A stretch of 64,000 bases of DNA from positions 11,688 through 75,687 of the IMG/VR virus record IMGVR_UViG_2974621193_000001; one strand, 5' to 3'. The notes under the pieces are model-generated. The model did not search any database. It was not told the DNA's origin and worked only from the letters and a program-made list of their open reading frames with translations. The DNA comes from a virus. Taxonomy: Duplodnaviria > Caudoviricetes. The position numbers and the translations under genes are program-made. Below, piece after piece: positions 763-60,988 of this stretch (positions are counted from its first letter, which is position 1; each line of letters opens with the position of its first letter).

Positions 763-831
763 TCACCCGCCCATAACCCCGGATATACCGCGCGCGGTTT
801 GTTATTGACTCATAATAGAAAGATTGGTGCT

Positions 832-1137
832 ATGAAACCAGAGTCGAGACACCCACTGAGGTGTACGTGCAGGACGCAGCCGCTGCTGGCTTACTACGGC
901 AGGAACAACAGAGGTCGGGCGTTTGTCCACGTAGCTTCATTCAAGAACAAGCGTCCGATCTCGCAGGTCTACACCACTGCACCCATATCAATCTGGTGCC
1001 CGTCGTGTGGGAAGTGGTGGAACATCTTCGTCAAGAATGAGAAGCTCACTGCGGAAGAGCGACAGAGTGCTCCGCCGGTACCCGAGCAAAAATCCAAATC
1101 GCGGGTATTGCTGGACAACCCGCCCGATGACCAGTAA
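832..1137 (+). CDS. small Zn-ribbon protein, Mu Com-like
   Basis: LRCTCRTQPLLA...ISIWCPSCGKWWNI resembles the Com-type RCxxCxxLL...CPxC pattern; ATG at 832 preferred over TTG at 799. Confidence 0.5.
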   Translation: MKPESRHPLRCTCRTQPLLAYYGRNNRGRAFVHVASFKNKRPISQVYTTAPISIWCPSCGKWWNIFVKNEKLTAEERQSAPPVPEQKSKSRVLLDNPPDDQ

Positions 1138-1140
1138 GGT
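1112..1140 (+). promoter_or_regulatory. putative SigA-type promoter for the head operon
   Basis: TGGACA (1112-1117), 17 bp, TAAGGT (1135-1140); ATG at 1152. Confidence 0.4.
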
Positions 1141-1151
1141 TCGGTGACATT

Positions 1152-2375
1152 ATGACAACCGCCACGCTATCGCCCGCGCAGAGGCGGAACTGCGTCTTCG
1201 TTCGCAACCTCGGTGCGCCGGTCAAGACCTACGAAAAGCAGGTCGATGACAAGTCGGGCAACGGAGGCACGGTCGAGGCACTCATCGTGGAGGGCAAGCC
1301 GATCTTCCGGAGCGGCACGTTCTCCGACAGCATGGGCATCGAGCATACGTGGGAAACGCTGCACATGCAGCAGATGGTGGACCACGCAACGCTTCTGTCC
1401 AGCCGTGGAATCTTCGAAGATGTCCCGGTGCGCAAGGGTCATCCCGACTGGGGCGGTCTGTTCAGCGATCCGGTTCGGAACGCTATGGACGAGCTCATCG
1501 GGTACATGGGCAACTTCCGTACCGAGGAACGGGTCAATCCGGCAGACGGACAGACCTACACATACTTGCTCGCCGACCTCGAGATTCTCGAAGAGACCGC
1601 GATCAAGAACATCAAGTCCGGTCTCTGGCGGAACGTTTCCGCCGAGATCAGCACATACGTCACCAACGGCAATGCCGAGTACTGGCCAGTGATGTACGGG
1701 GTGGCCTACGTAGACATCCCGGCTGTCGAGGGTCTCAAGGCTCAGCATTCGAAGGCGGCGAACCAATTCAGCATCATCTTGGAGGAAGACATGGGATCGA
1801 CGCCCAGCAACCCGAACCCCCCGGTTCCGGCTGAGCAGAACACCACCGGCGAGCAGAACAACCAGGGTGGCAGCAACCACAGCGCCCCGGCTCCGACGCC
1901 GACCCCCGCCTTCGCGTTCAGCATCGGCGGCAAGCAGACCACCGACTTCGCTGCGGTGCAGGCTCACATCAACGGCATCGAGACCGAGAACGCTTCGCTG
2001 AAGCAGTTCAAGCAGGAATCGGTCGAGGCGGGTCGCGCGGCGTTCGTCAAGTCGCTCGTCGAGACCAACCGTGTTCCGGCCACCGAGGAGCAGAAGTTCC
2101 TCGACTACGCCAAGAAGCAGACCGACGAGAGCTTCGCCGAGTGGAAGTCCATGATGGAAGCGATTCCGGTCATGGGCATCGCCACCCCTCAGGGCGCCGG
2201 GTTCTCGCAGAGCCACGATCAGACCCAGCAGACCGACGCCAAGGCGGAGCGCATCGACGTGCTCAAGTCCATCGTCTCGGCTCATCAGATGGGCAACCGG
2301 ATGACCACCGCCCAGATCATGGAGCAGGACTCGTACAAGGAGCTCCTGCGACTCGAGCCGACCTTCACCCTCTAG
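1152..2375 (+). CDS. capsid maturation protease / scaffold fusion
   Basis: Lies directly before decoration and capsid genes. VSAEISTY...GVAYVDIPAVEGL resembles Mu gpI-type proteases; Pro/Asn/Gln linker then a helical scaffold-like C-terminus. Confidence 0.75.
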   Translation: MTTATLSPAQRRNCVFVRNLGAPVKTYEKQVDDKSGNGGTVEALIVEGKPIFRSGTFSDSMGIEHTWETLHMQQMVDHATLLSSRGIFEDVPVRKGHPDWGGLFSDPVRNAMDELIGYMGNFRTEERVNPADGQTYTYLLADLEILEETAIKNIKSGLWRNVSAEISTYVTNGNAEYWPVMYGVAYVDIPAVEGLKAQHSKAANQFSIILEEDMGSTPSNPNPPVPAEQNTTGEQNNQGGSNHSAPAPTPTPAFAFSIGGKQTTDFAAVQAHINGIETENASLKQFKQESVEAGRAAFVKSLVETNRVPATEEQKFLDYAKKQTDESFAEWKSMMEAIPVMGIATPQGAGFSQSHDQTQQTDAKAERIDVLKSIVSAHQMGNRMTTAQIMEQDSYKELLRLEPTFTL

Positions 2376-2411
2376 GTTCGCGGCCACCCTCAAGAAGAAG
2401 GAAGAAACACA

Positions 2412-2891
2412 ATGGCTGATTTCGTCAAGGGCCGCGAAGAGTACGCGGTCCACGGCAAGCGCCAGATCCTCCGGCACGCACACCCCGGCGCGTACACGGT
2501 GGTCTCCAAGACCATCTCGCACGAGGCCTTCCCGGTGGCCGAGGATGCAGACGGCAATCCCGACTACGTGCTGCAGGAGGGCGAGGTCATGGTCACCCTG
2601 ACCTCCGGCCCGCACGCAGGCAAGTGCGTCCCGTTCCAGGAGTTCCAGGCAGACGGCACGACCGCCTTCACTGACGGTCGCTCGACCCTCGCCAACCTGG
2701 TCGGCGTCTGCAAGGACTACTTCGGCTGGGAGCTCTCCGAGCGCGATGTCGAAGCGGGCATCCTCGATCGGGGTCACCTGGTGCAGAACTGGTGCACCGT
2801 TCGTGATCCAGACGGGAACCGGGTCACGATGACCAACGCGGTAGCCGACGCGCTCCGTAGCAAGAAGAACCTCGACATCCTCTTCTCGTAA
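2412..2891 (+). CDS. head decoration protein
   Basis: 159 aa between protease and capsid genes; VLQEGEVMV..TSGPHAGKCVPF..DG pattern typical of lambda gpD-like decoration proteins. Confidence 0.65.
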   Translation: MADFVKGREEYAVHGKRQILRHAHPGAYTVVSKTISHEAFPVAEDADGNPDYVLQEGEVMVTLTSGPHAGKCVPFQEFQADGTTAFTDGRSTLANLVGVCKDYFGWELSERDVEAGILDRGHLVQNWCTVRDPDGNRVTMTNAVADALRSKKNLDILFS

Positions 2892-2903
2892 GGAGACGAA
2901 CAA

Positions 2904-4103
2904 GTGACCGCATCACTGGGCATGTTCAACAAGCCCCAGCCCACTGCCCACGGCGCGCAGCCGCTGGACAAGCTCATCCGCAAGGAGGTGGCGCTCGGCG
3001 TCATCAAGGAGATCGTCAAGCCCGAGGACCACCTCGGCCTGACCCTCTTTCCCTTCAAGGACGTGCCGACCGATGACTACATCTTCTCGTACGTCAAGGG
3101 TCTGACCACCGGCCTGGCCCCCGCCATCGCCGAGTCGGCCGAGTCGGAACTGGCCCAGAAGGACAGCGGCCTGGCCAACCAGGGTCGCGCGTCGATCATC
3201 GACTGGCGACTCAAGGACCACTACGACGCCGCCGACGTGCAGCGTTTCCTGGACCTGCAGCTGCTCGCCGAGGCGAACCAGTTCGGCCCCTACGGTCTGC
3301 CCAACACCCTGCTGGGTGACATCAACCAGCTGCCGCAGCGGATGCAGCGCGACACCGAAGAGCGTCGCCGCCGCCTCGACAACCGAGCCGAATGGCTCAT
3401 CATGCAGTCGCTGTCCAACGGCGGCATCGCTTACAACGACGGGAACATCAAGTTCTCCGTCGACTGGAAGCGTCCGGTCGATCAGCAGGCACAGACGCCG
3501 GCCTCGGGCACCTACGCCAGCACCACTCACGATCCCATCGGGGACATCAACAAGATCAAGCGACTGATCTACAATCGCTACGGCGTGCTGATCACTCGCG
3601 CGATCTGCTCGAACAAGTTCCTGTTGAGCCTCATCAACTCGGACAAGTTCATCCTGCGTGCGGGTCTCGGCACCGCGTCCAACTCGGGCATCACCCAGTC
3701 GGACGTGCCGTACCTGATCAACGGCTGGGGTCCGCAGGTCGCCATCGACATCGTCGAGCAGCAGACCGGCATCAAGTTCATCGAGTACGATTCGGGCTAC
3801 CGCAGCAAGCCGGACTTCGCTCAGGGGCCGGTCACCTTCAATCGGTACCTGCCCGAGAACCGGGTGATCTTCCTGCCGGACGACAACGCGATGGCCGAGT
3901 ACGACTCCTCGGACATCGGCCTCGGCAAGATGCTGACCAGCCCGCACAGCATGGGCAACGGGTCCGCAGGGTTCTACATGTGGGAGCAGGACACCACGGA
4001 CCCCTGGGGCAAGAACGTGGGCACCGGGATCAAGATGTTCCCGCTATTTCCTCACATGGAATTGACTTACACGATGGATGTCACGCTCCCGGCCGACCTC
4101 TGA
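2904..4103 (+). CDS. major capsid protein (lambda gpE-like family)
   Basis: 399 aa, synteny, very strong GC3 bias; RLDNRAEWLIMQSLSNG.I.Y, VDWKRP and C-terminal WEQDTTDPWG...GIKMFPLFP typical of the capsid-E family. Confidence 0.85.
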   Translation: MTASLGMFNKPQPTAHGAQPLDKLIRKEVALGVIKEIVKPEDHLGLTLFPFKDVPTDDYIFSYVKGLTTGLAPAIAESAESELAQKDSGLANQGRASIIDWRLKDHYDAADVQRFLDLQLLAEANQFGPYGLPNTLLGDINQLPQRMQRDTEERRRRLDNRAEWLIMQSLSNGGIAYNDGNIKFSVDWKRPVDQQAQTPASGTYASTTHDPIGDINKIKRLIYNRYGVLITRAICSNKFLLSLINSDKFILRAGLGTASNSGITQSDVPYLINGWGPQVAIDIVEQQTGIKFIEYDSGYRSKPDFAQGPVTFNRYLPENRVIFLPDDNAMAEYDSSDIGLGKMLTSPHSMGNGSAGFYMWEQDTTDPWGKNVGTGIKMFPLFPHMELTYTMDVTLPADL

Positions 4104-4109
4104 TTCAGG

Positions 4110-4138
4110 TTGTGCGGTGTTTCCATTTATGTTACTAT
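4110..4138 (+). promoter_or_regulatory. putative promoter giving a leaderless HNH transcript
   Basis: TTGTGC (4110-4115), 17 bp, extended -10 TGT-TACTAT (4133-4138); HNH ATG at 4145 lies 6 nt after the -10. Confidence 0.6.
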
Positions 4139-4158
4139 CAATAAATGGAAACACCGCA
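4113..4158 (+). promoter_or_regulatory. perfect 18-bp stem hairpin sequestering the HNH start codon
   Basis: tgcggtgtttccatttat (4113-4130) is the reverse complement of ataaatggaaacaccgca (4141-4158); 10-nt loop; ATG 4145-4147 is inside the 3' arm. Confidence 0.85.
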
Positions 4159-4705
4159 ACCGCCACAGGTACCAGAGGCCTTTAGAGTTCCACCAAAGTC
4201 AATTCCGGCTTTGGTACAAAAGAATACAGTAAGTCAGAATGGTCATCGAGTGGGTCGTCGGCCAGTAATGTTTGACGACGACGGACTGAAGCCGTGTAGT
4301 TCTTGTAAGGAACGACTCCCCAGGGAGTCGTTCGACAGAAATAGGCGCATGGCGAGCGGTTATGCTTCGCAATGCAAAACCTGCTTCAGAAACAAGGGTT
4401 ACACAGACGAGGCGTCACGCTCGGAGTACAGGTTCCAAAGAAAATACGGAATCAGTATGCAAGAGTATGATCGAATGTTTGATGACCAGTGCGGGAGATG
4501 CAAGCTGTGTGGACAGTCTCCCGAGGGGTCGAGGTATAGCAAGTTATATATCGACCACAATCACCAGACCGGCAAGGTTCGCGGACTTCTTTGTATCGAA
4601 TGTAATTTCGGTCTAGGCAAGTTCAAGGACAATGCAGAATTGCTGGACAGAGCGAGTGATTACGTTCGCCAAGATGGGGACGTGACCCTCCCCGCCGATC
4701 TCTGA
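4145..4705 (+). mobile_element. free-standing HNH homing endonuclease gene (Endonuclease VII family with N-terminal CxxC Zn domain)
   Basis: CSSC...CKTC N-terminus; YGISMQEYDRMFDDQCGRCKLC...IDHNHQTGKVRGLLCIECNFGLGKFKD is the EndoVII signature; AT-richer than the flanking genes. Confidence 0.85.
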
Positions 4706-4726
4706 TCGGGAAAGGAGTAAAACGAC

Positions 4727-4921
4727 ATGGCCTCCAAGAGTACCGTCGTCGTGAAGAAGAAGGGCGCCCGAGGTGGCGTCAACCCCGGAACCGCAGGCAC
4801 CGGCGCAGGGCTCCTGCCCTACGGTGCACAGACGGGGGGACAGTCCAGCGCCGATCCGGTCAAGTCGGTGAAGGCGACGCAGGACAAGAACCGTCGGGCC
4901 ATCGGCTACGGCGAGCGCTGA
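4727..4921 (+). CDS. small basic Gly-rich protein
   Basis: 64 aa, SD aaaggag, GC3 bias. Confidence 0.7.
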   Translation: MASKSTVVVKKKGARGGVNPGTAGTGAGLLPYGAQTGGQSSADPVKSVKATQDKNRRAIGYGER

Positions 4922-4929
4922 TCGAGGAG

Positions 4930-4966
4930 CCCCGTCCGAGTTTTCTTCCCCTTAACTCGGACGGGG
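4930..4966 (+). terminator. 13-bp stem hairpin, putative terminator
   Basis: ccccgtccgagtt / aactcggacgggg perfect inverted repeat right after the stop codon. Confidence 0.55.
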
Positions 4967-4991
4967 CGACTCCGTCTCAACAAGGAGCATC

Positions 4992-5306
4992 ATGGCAGAG
5001 AACAACCAGGTTGTCGAGGACGCGAAGGCCGAAGACAACCTCCCGATCGGTCGCCCCGACTCGCCCAACGCCGAGGAGCCCGCCAACGAGGTGGACGCAA
5101 TTCTCTACTCGGACGAGGAGCGCGAGGACTACCAGCGCTTCGGCGCGACCCCGCCGCCCGAGCATCCGAACTTCGGGGCCACGTACTTCGATAACAAGTC
5201 GGAGGACAAGGACTCGGACAAGGAAGAGACCAAGAAAGAGGAACCGAAGCAGGCAACCCCGCCGACCCCGGCTGCACCGCCCGCTCCGTCCGCGCCGAAG
5301 AACTGA
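4992..5306 (+). CDS. acidic/Pro-rich hypothetical protein
   Basis: SD aaggag, 104 aa, GC3 bias. Confidence 0.7.
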   Translation: MAENNQVVEDAKAEDNLPIGRPDSPNAEEPANEVDAILYSDEEREDYQRFGATPPPEHPNFGATYFDNKSEDKDSDKEETKKEEPKQATPPTPAAPPAPSAPKN

Positions 5307-9357: not shown

Positions 9358-12300
9358 TTGAACACGACTGCGGCGAATATCCTCATCACCGCACAGGCCC
9401 GCCAGGCACAGGCCGTGCTGGCTCGCGCGCAGGCTGCGCTCAAGGGTCTGCAGTCGACGGCACAGGGTGCCAACGCTGCCCAGGCTACAGCTGCGAACGC
9501 TGCCGCACGGCAGATCGAAGCAGCAGAGGCACGCAAGGCTTCGGCGGCTGCCAAAGCATCTCTGGCAATTGAGCAGGCGAATCTTCGCCAGATCAAATCT
9601 GAACAAGCGGCGTCTGTAGCCGCGGCCAGATCGGCAGCCGCCACATCTCTCGCTCAAACAAAGGCGTCAACCGCGGCCCAAGTGGCCGCCGCAAAGCAGG
9701 AAGCTTCGGCGGCGAAGATGGCGGCGGCAATGGAACTCTCCGCCATGAAGCAGCAGGCCGCATTGGCTCAGCTGACTCTGGTTCAGATGCGTCAGCTTGC
9801 GCAGGCCGAAGCGGCATCGGCTCGACAGATCATTGCCGACAATCGCGCCACAATGTCGGCAGCGAAGTCCGCAGCACAGCAGGCCGCAGCTCGTGAATCG
9901 CTGACCATCGCAACACTCCGTGCGGTCGCACGCGAGGAAGCTGCATCGGCCCGCAAGATCGCAGCCGACGCACGCGCCGCACTGCAGGCACAGGTTCTCG
10001 CGAACGCCGAGACCGGCAATCAGAACCGTGTGGTCACCGCACGCCTGCGCGCTGCGGCACAAACCGCAGCGGCCAACGCAGCCAAGATCAACTCGGACAA
10101 CGGCGCTGCCATTGCAGCAGAGGTTGCAGCCAACCGTGAGGCGCGGGCTGCTCGCGATGCTGCGCTCGCCGACATGGATCGTGCGATGAAGGCGCAGGCT
10201 GCCAATGCCCGCAAGTCTGCTTCGGACGCTCAAGCTGCGGTGAATGCGCAGGCGAGTGCGATGAAGGAAGCGTCGGCAATGTCGGTCGCTGACGCCGCTC
10301 GCATCCGAAGTGCCTCGGTGGCCGCAGCGGAGAACGCACGCAAGGTAGCATCAGACGCAGCCGTCGCTAACGCGGCGGCTATGGCTGCTGGTCGCGAGTC
10401 GGTAGCCAACGCGGCCGCTGCAGCATCTGCCACCGTGGGCGCACAGGAAAAGGTTGTCGCAGACGCACGGGCTAATGCGTCTCGCCTGCAAGCCTCCAGT
10501 GTTGCGGCAACCGAGTCTGCGAAGATTGCAGCATCCGAGGCGCGTGCCGCCGCCGCCGCCGAGCGCGCCGCTATTCAGATCACCGCCGCGAAGCAGAAAG
10601 AGATCGCGGCCAACAGCGCAGCCACCGGATCGAATGTCGCCTGGTCGGAGAGCATGACCCGGTCCGGTTCTCGTATGCAGTGGATCGGTCGCCAGCTGTC
10701 GCAGAACTTCACTGCCCCGATGCTGCTTGCCGCAGGCTTCGGTGTCAAGTTCGGGTTGGACATGGAGAAGTCCATGACCCGACTCGAGAAGGTTTACGCC
10801 GACCAGGCGCTGATCCGCAAGGCGGAAGCCCAGGGCATCAACCTTGTTGCCAATGAGGTTGAAGCCCTCGAACGTAACTTCGTTGCACTGTCGAACAAGT
10901 ACGGCGTGCAGGCAGCTGAGGTTGCCAACGTCGCTGCCGAGTGGGCAGCGGCTGGTGCATCGGGCCAGGCGCTCGCGCATCAGACCGACCTCACAATGAA
11001 GACGATGGTCCTCGGCGAGATGGATGCCGAGGAGGCCACCAAGTCACTCATCGCGATCCAGTCGCAGTGGAACGCTGTCACCGAGACTTCGCTCGACCGG
11101 GCGGGTAAGCTGTCGCTTGGCACGTCCGGTTTGGCGAACGATCAGCTCAGCCTTACCACCATCCTCCGCCAGCTGAACGCAGTGGAGAACGAGACCGGCA
11201 CCACGATGAACGACCTCGTTGTCGCGTTCTCGCGCGCATCGGGTGTCGCTCGTACTGCAGGTCTGGATACCGCGCACCTCGCTGCAGCTACTGCCGCCCT
11301 CGTGCCTGCAGCTGGTAGTGCGGCTGAAGCCGGTAACGCCCTCAAGACGATCATCAGCCGTACCCTCACGCCTACCCGTGAAGCTGCCCAGATCATGGAG
11401 CTCATGGGGATCAACACCGCGAGCGCCTCTTGGCAGAGTCAGAACGCGGGCGAACGCCTTGAGGAACTTGCCGCTCGATTCGGCACACTGACCGGCGCAC
11501 AGAAGGCTCAGGTCTCGGCGTCGCTCGGTTCGCGGTATCAGGTCAACAAGCTCGAGGTTCTTTTCTCCTCGATAGCTAACACCTCGGGCTACTACCACAA
11601 GGCTTTGGGTAAGCTGGCCAACCAGGCCGACGTTGTGAAGATTGCCGAGGACGAGCTCAATACCGTCCTCGAGTCGCAGCCTCAGATGCTCAAGCAGGCT
11701 GGCGTCATCATTCAGAATAGTCTCATGAAGACTATGGTGCCGCTGATCCCGGTAATCATTCAGCTCACACAGTGGATCGGCAAGGCGTTCGATTCGTTCG
11801 CAAACCTGCCGACAGGTGTTCGCACCACGATCGTTGGACTTGGACTATTCCTCGCCACCGTCGGCCCCATTATCATCTTCCTGGGAATCTTCAAGCTGGC
11901 ACTTGGTCAGCTGACCCCAGTGTTCCTGGCGCTCGGTCGAGCAATTCTGTTCCCGATCACCGGGCTATTCAAGTTCACGGCAGTTCTCCTCAAGCCGATC
12001 GCGAGCCTTGCCAAGCTGCGCGGCGCATTGCTGTTGACCTCGCGGGCGTTCATGCTGATCCCTGCGGTCGCAGTTCTCATACCTCGGATCATCAGCTTCG
12101 CCATGATGGCTACGCAGGCGACGGTCGTCGTCGGCATGGCAGGCGTCATGGCAGCCTGGCGCACCGCCTGGGCGGCGATGATTACCTTCCAGGTTGTCTC
12201 GGGTGTGGCTATGACCACTACCCAGCGACTGACGTTCACCGCAATGCTGGCTGCACAGAACCTGTGGAACGCCGCATCGCTCGCAATGCAGAAGGCCTGG

Positions 12301-15300: not shown

Positions 15301-18300
15301 CTGCCAATTATGATTGGTCAGGCGCTCATCAAGCTCGGTGGGTTCCTGTTCAACGCTTTCACTGCAGCGATGGGGTGGCTGCTGCCGAAGCTGCCGGGGT
15401 TCATCTGGAACATCGTCAAGTTCTTCGCAACGCTGCCGTTCAAGATCATCAGCGCACTCGTCGGGTTCGGCGCGAAGCTCCTCGGCTGGCTCGGTCAGGC
15501 CATCGCCTGGCTGGTGCCCCAGCTCCCAGGCATCGTCTGGGACATCATCACCTTCTTCGCAACGCTCCCGTTCAAGATCATTGGAGCACTGCTCGGGTTC
15601 GGCGCAAAGCTGCTCGAGTGGGCTAAGAACGCATTCATCTGGCTCGCACAGAACTTGCCTGGTGTGATCGGCAACGTAATCAGCTTCTTCGCTGGCCTGC
15701 CAGGGAAGCTGATCGGAGCACTCCTTGGACTCGGATCGAAGCTGTTCGAGTGGGCGAAGAATGGGTTCATCTGGCTAGCTCAGAACCTGCCGAATGCCAT
15801 CGGCGCAGTGCTTGACTTCGCCAAGGAGTTCCCCGGTCGAGTCATCCGAGGGTTTGGCAAGTGGGGTTCCTTCATCTGGGAGTGGATGAAGAAGGGCTGG
15901 GACTTCCTGGTCAACGAGATGCCAGGTATCGTCGCTGGATTCCTGAAGTGGATCGGCGGCATTCCCGGAATGCTGCTCGGCAAGCTGGGTGACGGCGCCA
16001 AGGTGCTGTACGACTACGGCAAGGACATGATCCAGGGCCTGATGAATGGCACCGCGGGTCTGCTCAAGAAGCTCGGCGACTGGTTCCTCGACAAGATTCC
16101 AGGCTGGATCAAGACGCCGTTCAAGAAGGCGCTCGGCATCGCATCGCCTTCGAAGGTCTTCGCTGGCTACGGCGTGAACATCGGCGAAGGTCTCGTCAAG
16201 GGCATTGGTAGCATGGAGGGCCAGGTCGAGCAAGCCTCGATCGCAATGGCTGCCGCAGCCGACAAGGGCGAAGTCGGAGGCATGGCTATCTCGGCCGTTG
16301 CTGACACTTCATCGGTGGGTGGCTCCGTGTCCGCGTTGGGTGATGCCGTTGCAGCATCCGGCCCGGTGGGGGTCGATACGGCGGCGGAGCCGACCGCCGA
16401 CATCGCGCCGATGCTAGCCGCAGCCGAAGCAGCGTTCGACGCTTTCGATGCATCCATGCAGAAAAAGATGGCAGCCTTCACCGCAGCAGTGACAGTCATG
16501 TTCGCTGCAATGGTGACGGGTGTCTTGTCGTCCCTCGATAAGGTGACGGTCGGAAGCGGTACCTCGTTTGCCGCAATGCAGGCGACTGTTGTCGGCATTG
16601 TCACCGCGATGGTGACTGCGGTTCAGGCTCAGCTCGCCCTGTTGATCAGCTACGTGACACAGTTCGGCCTAGCGTTTACCTCAGCTTGGGCTGAAGCTTG
16701 GAACGCATGGAAGTCCGAGACCAGCCTCGGCGTCGATCACACTCTGTCCGAGTGGGAACGCATGGCGCAGGGTATGCGCGACATCTTCGACGGCGGCATC
16801 GCGCCGATCTTTGAAGACATGGCAAAGATGTACACCACCCTGGAGGGTGCAACTAAGACGACCGTCGATAACGTCGGTACGACTTGGGCTGACATCGAAC
16901 CCAAGACAAAGCGCCCCGCCGGTATCGTCATTAACGAGGTCTACAACAACGGCCTGCGCGGAGCGTGGAACAAGTTCAACAGCTTCCTTGGTGTCGCAGA
17001 ACTCCCGGCGTTCACCGTCGCATACGCAACAGGTGGTCCCGTCCACGGACCCGGCACCGAGACCTCGGACAGCATTTACGCGAAGCTGTCGCGCGGTGAG
17101 CACGTCATTACCGCCGCCGAGGTTCGAGGCGCGGGCGGACACCAGGCCATCATGGCGCAGCGTCAGGTGTGGGCCGGACGTAAGCGGATGCAGGGTGTGG
17201 ATCAAAGTATGCCAGCATTCGCTCGCGGCGGTCCGGTCGACCCGAAGGCTCCGCCGTGGCCCGGTGAGTCGAATCTGAAGCCTGCGGCTATTCTGGCTCG
17301 ACGCAACATCCACAAGTACTGGCCGATGATCGGCGAGATCGGCGGCTACCGCCCGAGTGACCCGTATCCAGACCATCCGTCGGGCCTTGCGCTCGACGTC
17401 ATGGTCGGAGTCGGCAACCCGGTTGGCGACGAGGTCAACGACTGGCTCCACAGGAACATGGTTCCGCTGGCGCTGAACTACACCATCTGGAAGCAGTTTT
17501 ACAAGCCAGCCGGTGGTGGCGGTAACCTCATGGGCGACCGAGGCGACCCGACGCAGAACCACATGGATCACGTGCACGCCTTGTTCAACAACAACGGCGT
17601 TCCCGGTATCACGACTGGTGGTATCGGTGGTTCGAGTGGTGGCGCTCCTATCGACTACAAGAAGATAGTCCAGGAGTCCTTTAAGGCGGACATGGACGAG
17701 GTTCGCAAGAACCTCCCGGCTATCCCCGGCGGCATCGGCCAGTGGCCGAAGATCAGCGCCGATGTAGCCGAGAAGATGGCGCTGAAGAAGCTCCTCCCGC
17801 TCGCGGAGAAGATGAGCATCTCCAGCGGGTCGGCTGCGTCCGCCTGGGCGGGAGCGCCTGACGCCTCCGTTGTGACTAAGGTCAAGGAGGCGATGAAGAC
17901 TTATGGCTGGGACCAGGGCGCTGAATGGGAAGCACTCAACCAGCTGATCGGCCACGAGTCTTCGTGGAACCCGAACGCGCAGAACCCGAGTTCTACCGCG
18001 TACGGTCTGTTCCAGTTCCTCGATTCTACCTGGGCAAGCGTCGGCGGTTCCAAGACCAGCGACCCCTACCAGCAGGCAATCTACGGCGGACGCTACATTA
18101 AGAACCGCTACGGCTCGCCGTCTGCAGCGTGGGCATTCTGGCAGAACCCGCAGCCGAATCCTTATGGTGGCAACTGGTACGACAATGGTGGAGTTCTTCC
18201 GCCCGGGCTCACGCTGGCCAACAACCAGACTGGCGGACCTGAGGCTATCCTCACGGCGGCTCAGTGGAGCGCGATGTTCGACATCGCCTCGAAGCCGCCG

Positions 18301-21911: not shown

Positions 21912-24124
21912 TGCCGCAGCCACCTCGTGAAGACATTCAGCGTGCGTTCGTAGAGCCTGCGGTTCAGGTCATACGACGCATTGAGATCTATGAGCAGGAC
22001 GGCACGACACCCTGGAAGCAGGAGCTCTGGGATGACCTACTCATCGGCGGTTCTGTAAGCCTTGACTACAATCGTGACGAGCGCCGGGCACTTGAGTGCG
22101 AGCTCGACAACTCGTACGGTGACCTCGATCCTGAGCACGGCGGACTCTGGTACGACAAGCGATTCAAGCTGTACTACGGGATCGAGTTGAACCAGGACGA
22201 CCGAGGTGTGCGCGCGGCGATTGTTGAGGAGTACCTCGCTCCCGGCCAGGCGGCGGCGTTGAAGCAGCACTTGTCCTCGCATGGGATTAGCGAGGTTCAC
22301 TTCCTGCCTTCGGCTACCGACTACGAGCACGTCAAGGACTACGACGTACTCGTTGCCATATCCGCGACCAGCCTGCAGAAGCTCTCGTTTCTCAATCAGT
22401 GCTACAACAGGGGCAAGGGAATCGTTACCTTTGCTAATGACCAGACATCCGCGTCGATGCCCGCTATCATTGGCAATGCGGGTGCGTCAACGGTGCTCGC
22501 TGGTGTCCAGCTTAGCTATGCTCCGGTTACCGGGGCGTCCGACCTATCCGTGGGATGGGACGGTTGGAGTGAGGGATCTGGCTCCCAGGTTCTCATAAGT
22601 GAAGACTCGGAATCAAGGGCCGTTGGATCACGTATTGGCTTTAATAGCACTGACGCGATTACCATTACGGATCAGGAAGCTTACGCTGGGTCAAAGAGTA
22701 TTAAGTTTACACCTACCGTTAACTGGACAAAGTTGTTTATCGAACACTTTACTGGTAACGCTAATGTTCCCGGCAGGGTGTATCGAATATCCTTTATGGC
22801 AAAAAAAGATGCAGGGTTTAACAATCCGACATCCATTCGTTTCGAGTACAGTAACACTGGTACTACACTAGATTACACTGGACCTGCTGGTAATATCAAT
22901 ATCACCAACGAGTGGAATCGTTATGAGCATACCATAGTGGGGCCAGAGGGTTACGCTTACGTGCGCGCCACGTTTGCTAATGGGGCGGGTGGCACCTTCA
23001 CTGGAGCATCGGTATACTTGGATAACTTTACATTCGAGGACATCACCGATATTATTAAGTATCGCAAGATACTCGCACCAGCGGCGGGCGCGCAGGCGAT
23101 AGCAACACTGAGTGACACAACCAACGGCGACTCGGTCGGCGCCGTTTCAAGAGTGGGGTCCGCAGGGCAACGCTGGGTACACACTGTCGGATCGGACTTC
23201 AAGGCCGACGCCCTGGGCGGCGAGTACGAAAGCTTTGGGCGCTACGTTTCACGCATCGTATCGTGGGCTTCTTCATACCAGGCCCTCGACTACTGGGAGA
23301 TTCAGCTCGGCGAGTTCATGGCCGACTCTATCTCACTCGGAGGTTCCTATGCAACAGTCTCAATCTCAGGACGCGATCTTACTAAGTTGTGCCAGCAGTC
23401 GAAGTTCGTAACATCGACTACCTTCACCAAGAACACGCCGATCGAGAGTGTCGTCAAGACTGTCGCAACGAACGCGGGGATTTCCAAGTTCCGCCTGCCG
23501 ATCACCGGCAAAGTCCTAGATAAGGATATGACTTGGGAGCGAGACACTGCTCGCTGGGATGTGATTCGCGATGTATCAAACTCGAACAGCTACGAGGTGT
23601 TCTTCGATAATGAAGGCTATCTTGTTATGCGTGAGTTCCGTGATCCACTCACCACTCCGGCCACTCTTGAGCTTAGCGTTGGTGTGGGAGGTAATCTCAT
23701 ATCTCGTGGTGGGAAGACCTCCGACGCAAATCTTTTCAATCACATTGTTGTTGTTGGCGAATCTTCTGATTCATCGACTCCGCCTGTCTACGCAGAGGCA
23801 ATTAATACTGCAGCGACTTCGCCAACCAGTGTGCAAGAGATTGGCGACCGGGTCTCCATAATCACATCGAGCCTGGTCACCAGCGTAGCGAAAGCACAAG
23901 AGTACGCCAATGCACTCCTCGCCGTATCGGCGCTGGAAGAGTTCGAGCTCTCCTTCGAGTCGACCCTTCTTCCGTGGATTGAGGTCGGCGACATAGTTGA
24001 GATGAAGAACTCTGACGATCGTTACTGGGGACCAGACCGTTACTTGATGACGAGTCTGACGTTCCCGCTTGACCTGAATCCAATGTCAGGTGCAGGCAAG
24101 AGAACGGAAAAGGTGGAAGGCTAG
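21911..24124 (+). CDS. minor tail / baseplate hub protein with inserted carbohydrate-binding-like module
   Basis: Hub-like N- and C-termini (LGEFMAD...ISGRDLTKL...YEVFFDNEGYLV) interrupted by an AT-rich segment encoding AYAGSKSIKF...YRISFMAK...TNEWNRYE...YLDNFTF (CBM4/9-like). Confidence 0.7.
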   Translation: MPQPPREDIQRAFVEPAVQVIRRIEIYEQDGTTPWKQELWDDLLIGGSVSLDYNRDERRALECELDNSYGDLDPEHGGLWYDKRFKLYYGIELNQDDRGVRAAIVEEYLAPGQAAALKQHLSSHGISEVHFLPSATDYEHVKDYDVLVAISATSLQKLSFLNQCYNRGKGIVTFANDQTSASMPAIIGNAGASTVLAGVQLSYAPVTGASDLSVGWDGWSEGSGSQVLISEDSESRAVGSRIGFNSTDAITITDQEAYAGSKSIKFTPTVNWTKLFIEHFTGNANVPGRVYRISFMAKKDAGFNNPTSIRFEYSNTGTTLDYTGPAGNINITNEWNRYEHTIVGPEGYAYVRATFANGAGGTFTGASVYLDNFTFEDITDIIKYRKILAPAAGAQAIATLSDTTNGDSVGAVSRVGSAGQRWVHTVGSDFKADALGGEYESFGRYVSRIVSWASSYQALDYWEIQLGEFMADSISLGGSYATVSISGRDLTKLCQQSKFVTSTTFTKNTPIESVVKTVATNAGISKFRLPITGKVLDKDMTWERDTARWDVIRDVSNSNSYEVFFDNEGYLVMREFRDPLTTPATLELSVGVGGNLISRGGKTSDANLFNHIVVVGESSDSSTPPVYAEAINTAATSPTSVQEIGDRVSIITSSLVTSVAKAQEYANALLAVSALEEFELSFESTLLPWIEVGDIVEMKNSDDRYWGPDRYLMTSLTFPLDLNPMSGAGKRTEKVEG

Positions 24125-26121
24125 TGGCTACAGGGTTTGGCAACTGGGGCAACAGCGTCAAGGCTCACAGCGTTCTGCGTGAGATTGCCAAGAAAGAAGT
24201 AGAGCGCCTACGCCCTTCATCCCGGCTGGCCGAGGTGACCTCGATCATCCCCGCCGAGAAGAAGGTGCTGGTCAGGTTCGTTGGCGAGTCCAACGTTGTG
24301 CCTGTGCCGTATACTTCTACTGCGCCTGCGAACGTGGGTCAGTGGGTTCGGATCGGTGGCACGACTCACGATCGCTATGTCGAAGATGTCATCGGCACTA
24401 CGCTCACCGAGGCTCGGCTGGAGACGGCCGAGGGTCGGATCGGCTCGCTCATGGAGAGCGTTATCGGCGAGGGCTGGGAAGACGAAGACGACGGCGAGCC
24501 CGGTACGTTCACTGGTATCATCAGTCAGTACTTTGGCGGTATCGAGGAGAACGCGACCGAGGCCCTCGGCCTGGCCGGACAGGCAGACACTAAGGCGGGC
24601 CAGGCTCAGACGACAGCGGAGAACGCACAGACCACGGCCGAAGGTGCGCAGACCACTGCAGACAACGCGAACACTACCGCAGGCCAGGCGCAGCAGACTG
24701 CTAGTGATGCTAGCGCTGCTGTCGGTGGTGCAGTCACGGCAGCCGAGGACGCCGACGAGAAGGCAACCCTCGCGCAGCAGATAGCCCAGCACATCACCGA
24801 CAATATCAATGCGCTCGGTGAAGGCGTTGCGGCTGGTACTGCAGGTGTCGCACAGGTCTTCGATACGATCGCTGGCATCTTCACGACAGCAAGCGAGGCG
24901 CAGCAGAAAGCGGTGGATGCACAGACCGCACTGCAGAATCTGATTAATCAGAACGAAGGCGCGGCAGCAGGCGGGCGGTCCGGGCAGGACAACTTCGACC
25001 GACCGAACTCGTCCACCCTTGGTACGGGCTGGATTTCCACTGCGTACGGAAATATTCGAGCGAGCATTGATTCTAAAGGTAGAGTTAACTTTCCGTTTGC
25101 CACTGACCCCAGCGGGGACGAGGGTGGTCTCATCTACCACCAGTGGGCTGGGGAGACTTCGGTTGGTGATTATTTCCAGAGCACTATTGTTTTCGGAACT
25201 TCGTTCAGCAACAACGGCAGTCCGCTGGCTTATGTGTTCAATCGCTGGGATGGACTGTTCGCCGCAGACAACGGCGTCAACACCAAGCCACTCAACTGCT
25301 GGGCAGTGCGTATTACACGCGCAGGTGGTCTCACTCTCTATCGAGTTGTCAATGGAGTCATGACATCGGTGGGCACGAGTGACGTAGCAGATATCAAATC
25401 AGGTGATGCCATCTCCCTTCGCTGCGGATCGCTCGCTGGTCCTGGCAACATCTCGGTCGTGGTCAACGGTCAGGTTGAGATTGCTTACACTGACCCCGGC
25501 ACAGGGATGATCGGTGCGGACTACCGCAAGCATGGTTTCTTCGGTTTCGCCGAGAATCAGGGCCTCCTAGGCTGGCAGCAGCCTGCGAGTGTCGCGTCGT
25601 ACAACTGGTCAGACATTCCCGGCGGAAGTATCGTGCTCGGCAAGGGGTTCCGCTTCGCCAGAACTACGGTTGCCAACCTTACTCAGGTGGCAAATGCGCA
25701 GGTGCCGACGACCACATTCCAGACTGCGGTTTACAGTGAGTCGTGCAAACCACTCGCCGACTCTACCCTCAAAGCTGCACGCGGCGAGTTCGCCATACCC
25801 TTCGAGGGGTGGTGGGACTTCGAGTTCGGCTTCTATGGCTACACCCTCAGCCTCTCGGCTGGTGCGTCTACTGTTCTGGATCCTGTACTCTACAACGGGC
25901 AGGGCGCACTCTCGACTACCATCCCCTTGCGCATGTCGAAGATCACCAACGGCGGCAGTTCCGCAGCGCGCACGCTGATACAAGAGGTCGCCAAGTTCAG
26001 GAAGTACTGCCTCGTGGGCGAGCGCGTAGCTCCTGGCTGGGGTGCGCAACGTCTCGACTACATGACCGCAGATGCAGGTGGACACACCTGTTACTTCAGT
26101 GGAGTTCTACTATCACCCTAG
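24124..26121 (+). CDS. minor tail / receptor-binding protein
   Basis: GTG overlaps upstream TAG; heptad AQTTAEN/AQTTAEG/AQTTADN coiled coil then a DNFDRPNSSTLGTGW lectin-like domain. Confidence 0.7.
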   Translation: MATGFGNWGNSVKAHSVLREIAKKEVERLRPSSRLAEVTSIIPAEKKVLVRFVGESNVVPVPYTSTAPANVGQWVRIGGTTHDRYVEDVIGTTLTEARLETAEGRIGSLMESVIGEGWEDEDDGEPGTFTGIISQYFGGIEENATEALGLAGQADTKAGQAQTTAENAQTTAEGAQTTADNANTTAGQAQQTASDASAAVGGAVTAAEDADEKATLAQQIAQHITDNINALGEGVAAGTAGVAQVFDTIAGIFTTASEAQQKAVDAQTALQNLINQNEGAAAGGRSGQDNFDRPNSSTLGTGWISTAYGNIRASIDSKGRVNFPFATDPSGDEGGLIYHQWAGETSVGDYFQSTIVFGTSFSNNGSPLAYVFNRWDGLFAADNGVNTKPLNCWAVRITRAGGLTLYRVVNGVMTSVGTSDVADIKSGDAISLRCGSLAGPGNISVVVNGQVEIAYTDPGTGMIGADYRKHGFFGFAENQGLLGWQQPASVASYNWSDIPGGSIVLGKGFRFARTTVANLTQVANAQVPTTTFQTAVYSESCKPLADSTLKAARGEFAIPFEGWWDFEFGFYGYTLSLSAGASTVLDPVLYNGQGALSTTIPLRMSKITNGGSSAARTLIQEVAKFRKYCLVGERVAPGWGAQRLDYMTADAGGHTCYFSGVLLSP

Positions 26122-26130
26122 GAGGGTGCA

Positions 26131-26349
26131 GTGATCGAACAGAAAACAGTTTACTTCGACAGTCTGCCAGGCGTGGCGATTCGTCTGACACGTGGGCACG
26201 AAGAGTTTGGAGATGACTTCATCACCGCCGAAGCCTTTGACGAGAACATGAACCTCATACCCGGAGGAGGCGGCGGATTCCGTGGACCTTCGCCCCATCC
26301 GCCGGTGATCGTGGAGCAGGAGCCAGAGCCCGAGTCCCCGGGAGGTTGA
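26131..26349 (+). CDS. hypothetical protein (possible tail fibre chaperone)
   Basis: SD ggaggg + GTG; 72 aa. Confidence 0.55.
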   Translation: MIEQKTVYFDSLPGVAIRLTRGHEEFGDDFITAEAFDENMNLIPGGGGGFRGPSPHPPVIVEQEPEPESPGG

Positions 26350-26388
26350 ACCAGAGGAAGTGATGTACGCCAGCGAAGAGGGCAATGC

Positions 26389-50483: not shown

Positions 50484-50794
50484 CAGGTTGGTCTCGTGAT
50501 CGTCACGTTCGGCCGCTCGTTGTCGAGGTCGGCGATGATCTCGGAGGCAGGCATCACGCCCACACTCTCGCGGCGTGACATGATGGTGATTGCTGCTGCC
50601 ACGTCTCTCGCATTCATCTTTACCTTGACCGTGTCTCCGTCGACAAGCATGATCTCGGCAGCCGCCTTGCCGTACTCGTCAACGGAAGTAATCTTGTCGA
50701 TGACGACGAAGACGTACTCGGCCTTGTCCCCCTCCTCGAATGGAGGAGTCTTGGGAGCGTAGGCGAACCGCTCGAACTGAAGCAGCTGGATCAC
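50483..50794 (-). CDS. hypothetical protein
   Basis: 103 aa. Confidence 0.55.
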   Translation of the reverse strand: MIQLLQFERFAYAPKTPPFEEGDKAEYVFVVIDKITSVDEYGKAAAEIMLVDGDTVKVKMNARDVAAAITIMSRRESVGVMPASEIIADLDNERPNVTITRPT

Positions 50795-60422: not shown

Positions 60423-60710
60423 TCACACATATTCACGTGTCACGTATGCGACGGTGTCACCCTCCCTCCATACAGCGAACGAGAGCTTCAGCTCGTCACC
60501 GAGGCGCGTCCACACCAGCTCCCGAGTTGTGTTCGGGTTGGCTAGTCGGATCATAGCTTCAGTGTTTCCGAACATACCCGCCCGCGTGCCGAAGATGCGG
60601 GAATCACGCAACGTGCCTGCGCGCCACACTGCCACGCGGTAGCGTGCGTGCTCCGGCCAGGTGGTCGGGATCAGGTGGGTCGGGACTGGGACCACGTTCG
60701 GCAGCGGCAT
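60423..60710 (-). CDS. hypothetical protein
   Basis: TAATG coupling at 60710. Confidence 0.55.
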   Translation of the reverse strand: MPLPNVVPVPTHLIPTTWPEHARYRVAVWRAGTLRDSRIFGTRAGMFGNTEAMIRLANPNTTRELVWTRLGDELKLSFAVWREGDTVAYVTREYV

Positions 60711-60988
60711 TAGATCACCGCCAGTAGTTCGCCGATGGACACCTGCTCGTCGTCGAGGTGCCACGTCAGGACCTCCGGCGACTGCAGCCACGTGATCAGG
60801 TCGGGCGTGCTGTCAAACGCCTCGTAGCACTCGAGGTCACCCTTGTTATGGGCGATCACACACCAGCCGCGCCCCACTTCCTCGATGACTACGTCCAGGC
60901 TGGGCGAACCGTAGTCGCTGTGTTTGCGCGCGAAGGCGTAGGACACCTGCGCGGTGATCTGGTGGGTTGTTTCGGTCACGGTCATCAC
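60710..60988 (-). CDS. hypothetical protein
   Basis: SD gaaggag; GTGA coupling. Confidence 0.55.
   Translation of the reverse strand: MMTVTETTHQITAQVSYAFARKHSDYGSPSLDVVIEEVGRGWCVIAHNKGDLECYEAFDSTPDLITWLQSPEVLTWHLDDEQVSIGELLAVI

Follow-up and report, generated by a model that had tools for sequence, protein, structure and literature searches.

The DNA analysed here, called the window throughout, is a stretch of 64,000 nucleotides (nt), positions 11,688 to 75,687 of the IMG/VR virus record IMGVR_UViG_2974621193_000001. It belongs to a Gordonia phage of the genus Montyvirus, and the source record is a complete genome of 75.7 kb with terminal repeats. The 3' end of the major capsid protein gene of this phage contains an inserted element that encodes an EndoVII-type HNH endonuclease. 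The capsid gene ends in a terminus borne by the element, while the resident capsid tail has been displaced downstream, where it provides the last codons and the stop codon of the nuclease gene. We propose that the element is a free-standing homing endonuclease cassette, spread by intronless homing and carrying a capsid terminus that diverges from its own target, and we put the probability of this reading at about 80%. The original prediction, made from the letters alone, had placed the element inside the 3' end of the capsid gene, supplying the expressed terminus and reading into the resident tail and stop codon. Alignments with relatives that do not contain the HNH gene support it in these points.

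Architecture of the insertion and comparison with HNH-less relatives

The capsid gene (2904-4103, plus strand, as are all features described below) is intact and codes for 399 amino acid residues. It matches PF03864 (Phage_cap_E, E=1.2e-15) and phrog_29 (major head protein, E=7.6e-63), and its product is 99.7% identical to the capsid protein of phage Diabla. The nuclease gene occupies 4145-4705. As was noted earlier, the open reading frames (ORFs) of both genes end in DVTLPADL and a stop codon, and the two tail copies differ only at synonymous third positions. The repeat itself is 29 nt long, with an upstream, expressed copy at 4076-4104 that is identical at 24 of 29 positions to the copy at 4678-4706. 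The five mismatches are located at 4079, 4082, 4085, 4091 and 4097, and the longest identical run shared by the two copies is 7 nt. A distance of 602 nt, not divisible by three, separates the copies, which are read in different frames.

The downstream copy (4678-4705) consists of a single G, the DVTLPADL codons and TGA. It is identical to Diabla 15492-15519 and is the displaced resident capsid tail, now the C-terminus and stop codon of the nuclease ORF. It is followed by the unchanged Shine-Dalgarno (SD) sequence GGAAAGGAG and by the head-tail connector gene (4727-4921; phrog_7074), the whole segment spanning 4706-4921. The connector gene, which starts with the ATG at 4727, directly follows the capsid gene in all relatives, and the SD sequence and ATG stand after the nuclease stop codon exactly as they stand after the capsid stop codon in HNH-less phages. 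The presence of the next gene's SD sequence behind the HNH copy, another point of the original prediction, is thus confirmed.

Phage introns often carry HNH genes, and the resident tail downstream resembles a 3' exon. It is nevertheless extremely improbable that the insert is a group I or group II intron or an intein that is removed from the capsid mRNA or protein by splicing. The upstream copy is terminated by a stop codon and completes a full-length capsid protein, and only 41 nt of the insert are non-coding. An intein is excluded because the tail copies are separated by a distance that is not a multiple of three and the HNH gene lies in another frame. The gene stands outside any intron or intein, with its own start and a frame different from that of the capsid gene. 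A search for intron or ribozyme structures over 3800-5000 (Rfam, E<=1) returned only chance miRNA-like matches on the hairpin described below.

The HNH insert is found in 0 of 92 related phage records, each of which matches the window in two pieces that skip the insert. The comparison with Diabla is the most informative. Window positions 823-4104 are 98.7% identical to this phage, and beyond 4678 the identity is about 99% over several hundred bases, so that both flanks of the insert are Diabla-like. On the right side, the 3' end of the Diabla capsid gene and the sequence that follows it are identical to the window from 4678 onwards, with the first difference at 4741. Diabla 15492-15520 is matched twice by the window, and the net extra DNA in the window is 602 nt. 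On the left side, the capsid genes differ at only 5 positions in the 1142 nt of 2904-4045 and at none in the 656 nt of 3390-4045. Then 12 differences, all of them synonymous, occur within 52 nt (4046-4097; binomial P=9e-18), and chance is excluded by the contrast between these 12 differences and the 5 in the preceding 1142 nt. The replacement terminus so delimited comprises the last 19 capsid codons and the stop codon (4044-4103).

It had been predicted that HNH-less relatives would match 4679-4705 and the sequence downstream of it. This is seen in Diabla, PokyPuppy, Jellybones, Hotorobo and others, and the spelling of 4044-4103 occurs in none of the relatives. A wider set of about 38 further HNH-less capsid genes of the family, down to 44% protein identity, shares the core spelling TTC CCG CAC ATG GAG with Diabla, in which the last of these codons is GAA. 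Since the core spelling of Diabla is the consensus of the whole family, the HNH-less state is ancestral.

The opposite polarity would require an element already present in the ancestor of the Montyviruses, with recombination between the tail copies removing it precisely from every relative sampled. The HNH body is indeed flanked by direct repeats. This history is very improbable, however, and loss by repeat recombination is excluded because the upstream part of the new spelling (CTA TTT CCT .. TTG ACT) would survive a deletion between the repeats, and it is present in no relative. The runs shared by the two repeats do not exceed 7 nt, the Diabla spelling is that of the consensus over about 38 capsids, and the flanks are about 99% identical to Diabla. 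The G+C content at third codon positions (GC3) is 0.52 in the HNH gene compared to 0.92 in the capsid gene, which marks the nuclease gene as foreign in composition.

An assembly chimera of two co-occurring phages has an equally small probability in our estimate. The record does come from IMG/VR, but it represents a complete genome with terminal repeats, and a chimera would not yield an in-frame fusion, a purely synonymous patch of 57 nt and an intact downstream context.

The nuclease, its homologues and its expression

The HNH gene codes for a free-standing protein of 186 residues, of which the last eight, together with the stop codon, are encoded by the resident capsid tail. The protein matches PF02945 with E=1.7e-23 and 82.8 bits (Pfam gathering cut-off 23.6) over profile positions 3-81 of 82, and phrog_2633 with E=5e-42 (residues 45-177, profile positions 10-139 of 142). 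It consists of a Cys4 finger (residues 51-80) and a nuclease domain (residues 96-175), and the nearest solved structures are those of Hpy99I and T4 endonuclease VII. The catalytic motifs are intact: the invariant residues C119, C122, D137, H138, C150, C153 and N154 and the nearly invariant H140 are all kept. Both the conserved fold and the phrog profile extend to about residue 175-177; the residues RQDG follow, and then the eight capsid-derived residues. The homologues stop on a codon of their own 4-12 residues past the end of the fold. It is important for annotation that the last eight residues of the nuclease derive from the capsid. The database gene call (P0001, 151 residues) starts at the GTG at 4250, 105 nt too late. 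The ATG at 4145 is the better start, because the homologues conserve a motif, NGxKVGR, which lies upstream of the database start.

No homologue with more than about 46% identity was found in 50,697 phage records and 5.8 billion proteins, and no second carrier of the element was found. The three nearest homologues, P0004, P0002 and P0003, are 43-47% identical to the window protein. Each of them is encoded directly between a Phage_cap_E capsid gene and a small connector-type gene (loci L018-L020), in phages whose capsid proteins are only about 50% identical to that of the window. The association of this nuclease family with one site is therefore seen in distant phages. Because the three nearest homologues occupy the same junction, the lineage appears to be specialised on the capsid-connector site. 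No such HNH gene is present in 31 further metagenomic loci of the capsid family. The L018 and L020 phages have capsid proteins that are 87% identical and connector proteins that are 90% identical, while their nucleases (L018:1506-2021 and L020:545-1087) are only 55% identical. This pattern suggests that the site has stayed the same while one nuclease allele took the place of another. For L018, L019 and L020, no close relatives lacking the HNH gene were found among the phage records or the 31 metagenomic loci. By these sequence comparisons, the window nuclease belongs to a sporadic lineage that is specific to the capsid-connector site and prone to turnover.

More distant EndoVII homologues, with about 36% identity, are found in Przondoviruses of Klebsiella (L022:1257-2301, phage IL33; L021, phage kpssk3). 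In these phages the nuclease gene is found between the genes for tail tubular proteins A and B, with an overlap of 38 nt with the 3' end of gene A; the annotation of kpssk3 omits it altogether. These T7-like homologues were considered as evidence for capsid specificity and rejected on account of their location.

The start of the nuclease gene is embedded in a perfect hairpin of 18 bp (4113-4158), whose arms, 4113-4130 and 4141-4158, are 100% complementary. The folding energy is -39.9 kcal/mol (z=-7.0), and 0 of 200 shuffled sequences fold as well. The ATG at 4145 lies in the 3' arm and a -10-like box lies in the loop. Read from the sequence, a candidate nuclease promoter (4110-4138) consists of TTGTGC at 4110-4115, a spacer of 17 nt and the extended -10 element TGT-TACTAT at 4130-4138. 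The A of the ATG is the seventh base after the candidate -10 box and no SD sequence is present, from which a leaderless mRNA is predicted. A strong hairpin at the start codon is also present in two of the homologous loci, L018 and L020 (z=-4.7 and -3.8, respectively), where a TANNNT box precedes the ATG by 7 nt and an SD sequence is lacking. The chance of finding this pattern in three of four loci is about 1e-3, with the reservation that the loci are homologous and not independent.

Expression of the nuclease is probably kept low by this arrangement. RNA that reads through from the capsid gene would fold the 18-bp hairpin over the ATG that has no SD sequence, while the promoter, with its -10 box in the loop, would produce a leaderless mRNA that is unable to fold the hairpin. 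Control by a hairpin and an internal promoter is known for I-TevI, I-TevII, I-TevIII, segB and mobE (PMC2988022). In those T4 genes, too, a stable hairpin on read-through transcripts masks the translation start and the promoter lies within the hairpin sequence (PMC2988022). The difference is that the T4 hairpin hides a ribosome-binding site, while the window gene has no SD sequence and is predicted to be translated from the ATG of a leaderless mRNA, in the actinobacterial manner. An operator of the I-TevI type, in which the hairpin region would resemble the presumed target, was also considered; the best match, 14 of 22 positions, was equalled in 52 of 300 shuffled sequences and is at the level of chance.

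Origin of the replacement terminus and proposed mechanism

The replacement end differs from Diabla at 12 of 57 positions and at 0 of 19 residues. The nearest known allele, that of the Woes-type Montyviruses, differs from it at 9 of 57 positions, and L010 and L012, counted by hand from the codon rows, are just as near (9 of 57). A hand count of the same kind places the 27-mer copy within the expressed end two bases from the L010 allele. Among the 12 differences, CCT, the G of TTG, ACG (4073), GTC, ACG, CCG and GAC (4097) recur in other lineages, namely the Woes-type Montyviruses and the TIN-like phages L009, L010 and L012. Five changes are unique, CTA, TTT, the T of TTG, ACT and GAT. All of these are towards A or T and are located on or beside the conserved core that codes for FPxFPHME.

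The original prediction had described an abrupt switch to atypical codons over the last 20 or so capsid codons. The switch is real, with 6 of 18 codons ending in A or T among the last 20 compared to 9% in the remainder of the gene (Fisher p=0.005-0.007). However, it is confined to the first half of the stretch (CTA TTT CCT .. GAA TTG ACT .. GAT), and the 27-mer copy remains G/C-rich. The view that the terminus had been recoded requires a similar correction: the five unique changes look like additional recoding, but the remaining differences match alleles of other lineages. Since six to seven of the 12 differences are such alleles, the terminus appears to have been imported, and the resident tail was not merely rewritten. 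It is most likely that the terminus came with the element from an unsampled Montyvirus-like relative and was not recoded on the spot. We conclude that the terminus probably travels with the nuclease gene and that the resident tail would always be that of the current host. Among 42 capsids included in the comparison of tail spelling, only two show a significant shift towards A/T over the last 20 codons, that of the window (p=0.007) and that of L018 (p=0.001), and both phages have the HNH gene.

Two other capsid tails show unusual spelling. In the Woes-type phages (L008:2644-2700, compared with L001:2644-2700), the last 19 capsid codons differ from Diabla at 10 of 57 nt, while the divergence over the whole gene is 8.9%. 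The divergence of this tail is near the maximum for any 57-nt window, with 5-6 of the changes of the present phage in common, and the tail may be the trace of an old invasion by a similar element that has since disappeared. The HNH-less metagenomic capsid gene of L037 (2740-2788) has the core TTT CCT CAC ATG GAA, like that of the replacement end, with an ordinary structural gene after it. This capsid gene could represent an allele that resists the nuclease, or one that once carried the element.

The proposed cassette has a length of about 660 nt and would consist of the carried capsid terminus (4044/4046-4103), the spacer with the hairpin and promoter, and the HNH body (4145-4677). It would have entered a Diabla-like Montyvirus from an unsampled relative by break and repair, either through intronless homing or through an illegitimate variant of it. 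The cut site would fall in the interval that starts where the new spelling begins and ends where the retained resident tail begins. We infer a position in or beside the core TTC CCG CAC ATG GAG ... ATG|GAC (Diabla 15461-15492) of HNH-less capsid genes. Repair would have copied the donor capsid end, its stop codon and the nuclease gene, and rejoined at or just to the left of the resident tail. The sharp patch of 57 nt is compatible with a conversion tract. The last 28 nt of the recipient gene would have survived to the right of the break, becoming the last eight codons and the stop codon of the nuclease gene and preserving the ribosome-binding context of the connector gene. If the donor already contained the duplication, rejoining would have been homologous. 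If the donor resembled L018-L020, rejoining would have been illegitimate and would have removed the original last codons of the nuclease gene; comparable microhomology junctions have been described for illegitimate repair of double-strand breaks in T4 homing (PMC2988022).

The new spelling, which is 12 of 52 bases away from the target, should shield the carrier from its own enzyme, since an uninterrupted capsid end would otherwise restore the target. The short identical runs of at most 7 nt should also keep the element from being lost by recombination between the repeats. By continuing into the resident stop codon, the nuclease gene leaves the SD sequence of the connector gene in its original context.

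Several observations weigh against this explanation. About half of the 12 differences are ordinary alleles elsewhere, and recoding for immunity is not required. The exact 36-mer of the replacement end has no other occurrence in IMG/VR, and the donor was not found. The nucleases of L018-L020 have their own stop codons and no tail duplication, and L019 and L020 show no unusual tail spelling, so that the carried terminus is not constant in the family. An in-frame fusion to the resident tail is expected by chance in one case of three. HNH enzymes of the T4 Mob type nick DNA and do not cut both strands (PMC2988022). Finally, a promoter and terminator scan of 3900-4900 at thresholds of the E. coli consensus was empty, and the promoter proposal is based on the extended -10 element of actinobacterial style and on its recurrence in homologous loci.

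It is important to consider also a one-off illegitimate recombination, by which the nuclease gene and a short diverged capsid patch would have been captured through ordinary mosaicism. The HNH protein would then be inactive or would not target the capsid gene, and the duplication would be a scar with no role in mobility or immunity. Actinophage genomes are mosaic, and the window itself has joints to Diabla at about 823 and 22572. The natural alleles among the 12 differences, the known microhomology junctions mentioned above and the lack of a second carrier in IMG/VR, the phage records and the protein collection also agree with such an event. It is unlikely, however, considering that the nearest homologues stand at the same capsid-connector junction in three distant phages, that the patch is only about 57 nt long and ends at the conserved core, that all catalytic residues are intact, and that the A/T-ward tail spelling is also present in the HNH-containing L018. 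We retain the homing cassette as the preferred explanation of the insert.

In other parts of the window, positions 1-822, 22572-23060, 24499-26383, 50486-50793 and 60710-60985 have no nucleotide match to Diabla, while their flanks are 88-99% identical; these stretches are read as mosaic joints or gene replacements. The first of them falls in a glycoside hydrolase gene upstream of the protease gene. Between the hydrolase and capsid protease genes there is an ORF of lower G+C content (799-1137, 112 residues, two CxxC pairs), which Diabla shares (gp12, hypothetical) and which is thus not peculiar to this phage.

Significance and comparison with known systems

The almost isogenic HNH-less phages Diabla and Eggsie grow on Gordonia terrae 3612, a standard host strain in teaching laboratories, which makes homing, self-immunity and marker exclusion directly testable. 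The predicted target is limited to about 31 nt, with 12 candidate immunity substitutions. Synonymous hot spots at the ends of capsid genes may be scars of such elements. A wider proposal, which we regard as tentative and rather doubtful, is that an EndoVII-type homing lineage has specialised on the nearly invariant FPxFPHME-coding core at the 3' end of Phage_cap_E genes across actinobacteriophages, carries a portable, target-divergent terminus, cuts the capsid genes of competitors during co-infection and drives turnover of 3'-end alleles. If this were true, past invasions would have left their marks in the Woes-type tails and the L037 spelling, and viruses would have in terminus replacement a general means, not described until now, of accommodating endonuclease genes within essential genes.

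An arrangement similar in outline is found in the icd gene of E. coli, where phage 21 and e14 are inserted in the 3' end of the gene with a diverged, largely synonymous substitute end, the native end being displaced. Those insertions are made by integrase through site-specific recombination at att sites in a bacterial chromosome, while the element in the window shows no integrase or att logic.

The closest likeness is to the 'gene hybrids' that mobile endonuclease ORFs (mORFs) form in fungal mitochondria, which are known from atp6 of Allomyces macrogynus, from atp6, atp9, cox2 and nad3 of Glomus sp., from atp6/cox2 of Phlebia radiata and from rps3 of Ophiostoma (PMC3630166, PMC4019555). In these genes, as in the window, the 3' portion of an essential gene has received an endonuclease gene, which comes with an in-frame substitute for the C-terminus and a stop codon (PMC3630166, PMC4019555). 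The native C-terminus lies downstream and is nearly identical to that of close relatives (PMC3630166). The inserted C-terminus is divergent in DNA and identical in protein, and has been read as horizontally acquired (PMC3630166). However, the fungal hosts are mitochondrial respiratory genes and the enzymes are of the LAGLIDADG or GIY-YIG type, compared to a phage capsid gene and an EndoVII-type HNH enzyme here. In the window the nuclease has a start of its own, and it is the 3' end of its gene that is joined to the displaced native tail; the duplication is very short (28-29 nt). An upstream in-phase or fused ORF, which is seen in Glomus atp6 and nad3 and not in all cases, is absent from the window: the capsid stop codon (4101-4103) is followed by a spacer of 41 nt and the nuclease is in another frame. 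Terminus replacement is thus documented in fungal mitochondria, while full-text searches, whose coverage of the literature is incomplete, found no published description of a terminus-replacing endonuclease in a phage.

The intronless homing of T-even phages (SegF, SegG, MobE and others) is similar in other respects. There, nuclease genes lie between or beside essential genes and are sporadic among close relatives, flanks are co-converted, cleavage is expected near and not at the insertion point, and carrier alleles differ from the target (PMC2988022). The seg and mob genes are intergenic, however, and for none of them has a substitute gene terminus or an ending in host codons been described (PMC2988022). 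The Mob enzymes are of the HNH-3/Mob type, in contrast to the EndoVII type (PF02945) of the window enzyme. Phage endonuclease genes also occur inside host genes, which they split, as do mobE in nrdA of Aeh1, mobA in gene 60/39 of T4 and seg in gene 43 of phage 25 (PMC2988022). Here, as in the window, a free-standing endonuclease gene lies inside an essential coding sequence and the phage is viable (PMC2988022). The split genes give rise to two polypeptides or are read by translational bypass (PMC2988022), while the capsid gene of the window remains whole and the element supplies the missing end. The published phage cases are thus either intergenic or gene-splitting (PMC2988022), and the window presents a third way, in which the element brings with it a copy of the end of the gene that it enters.

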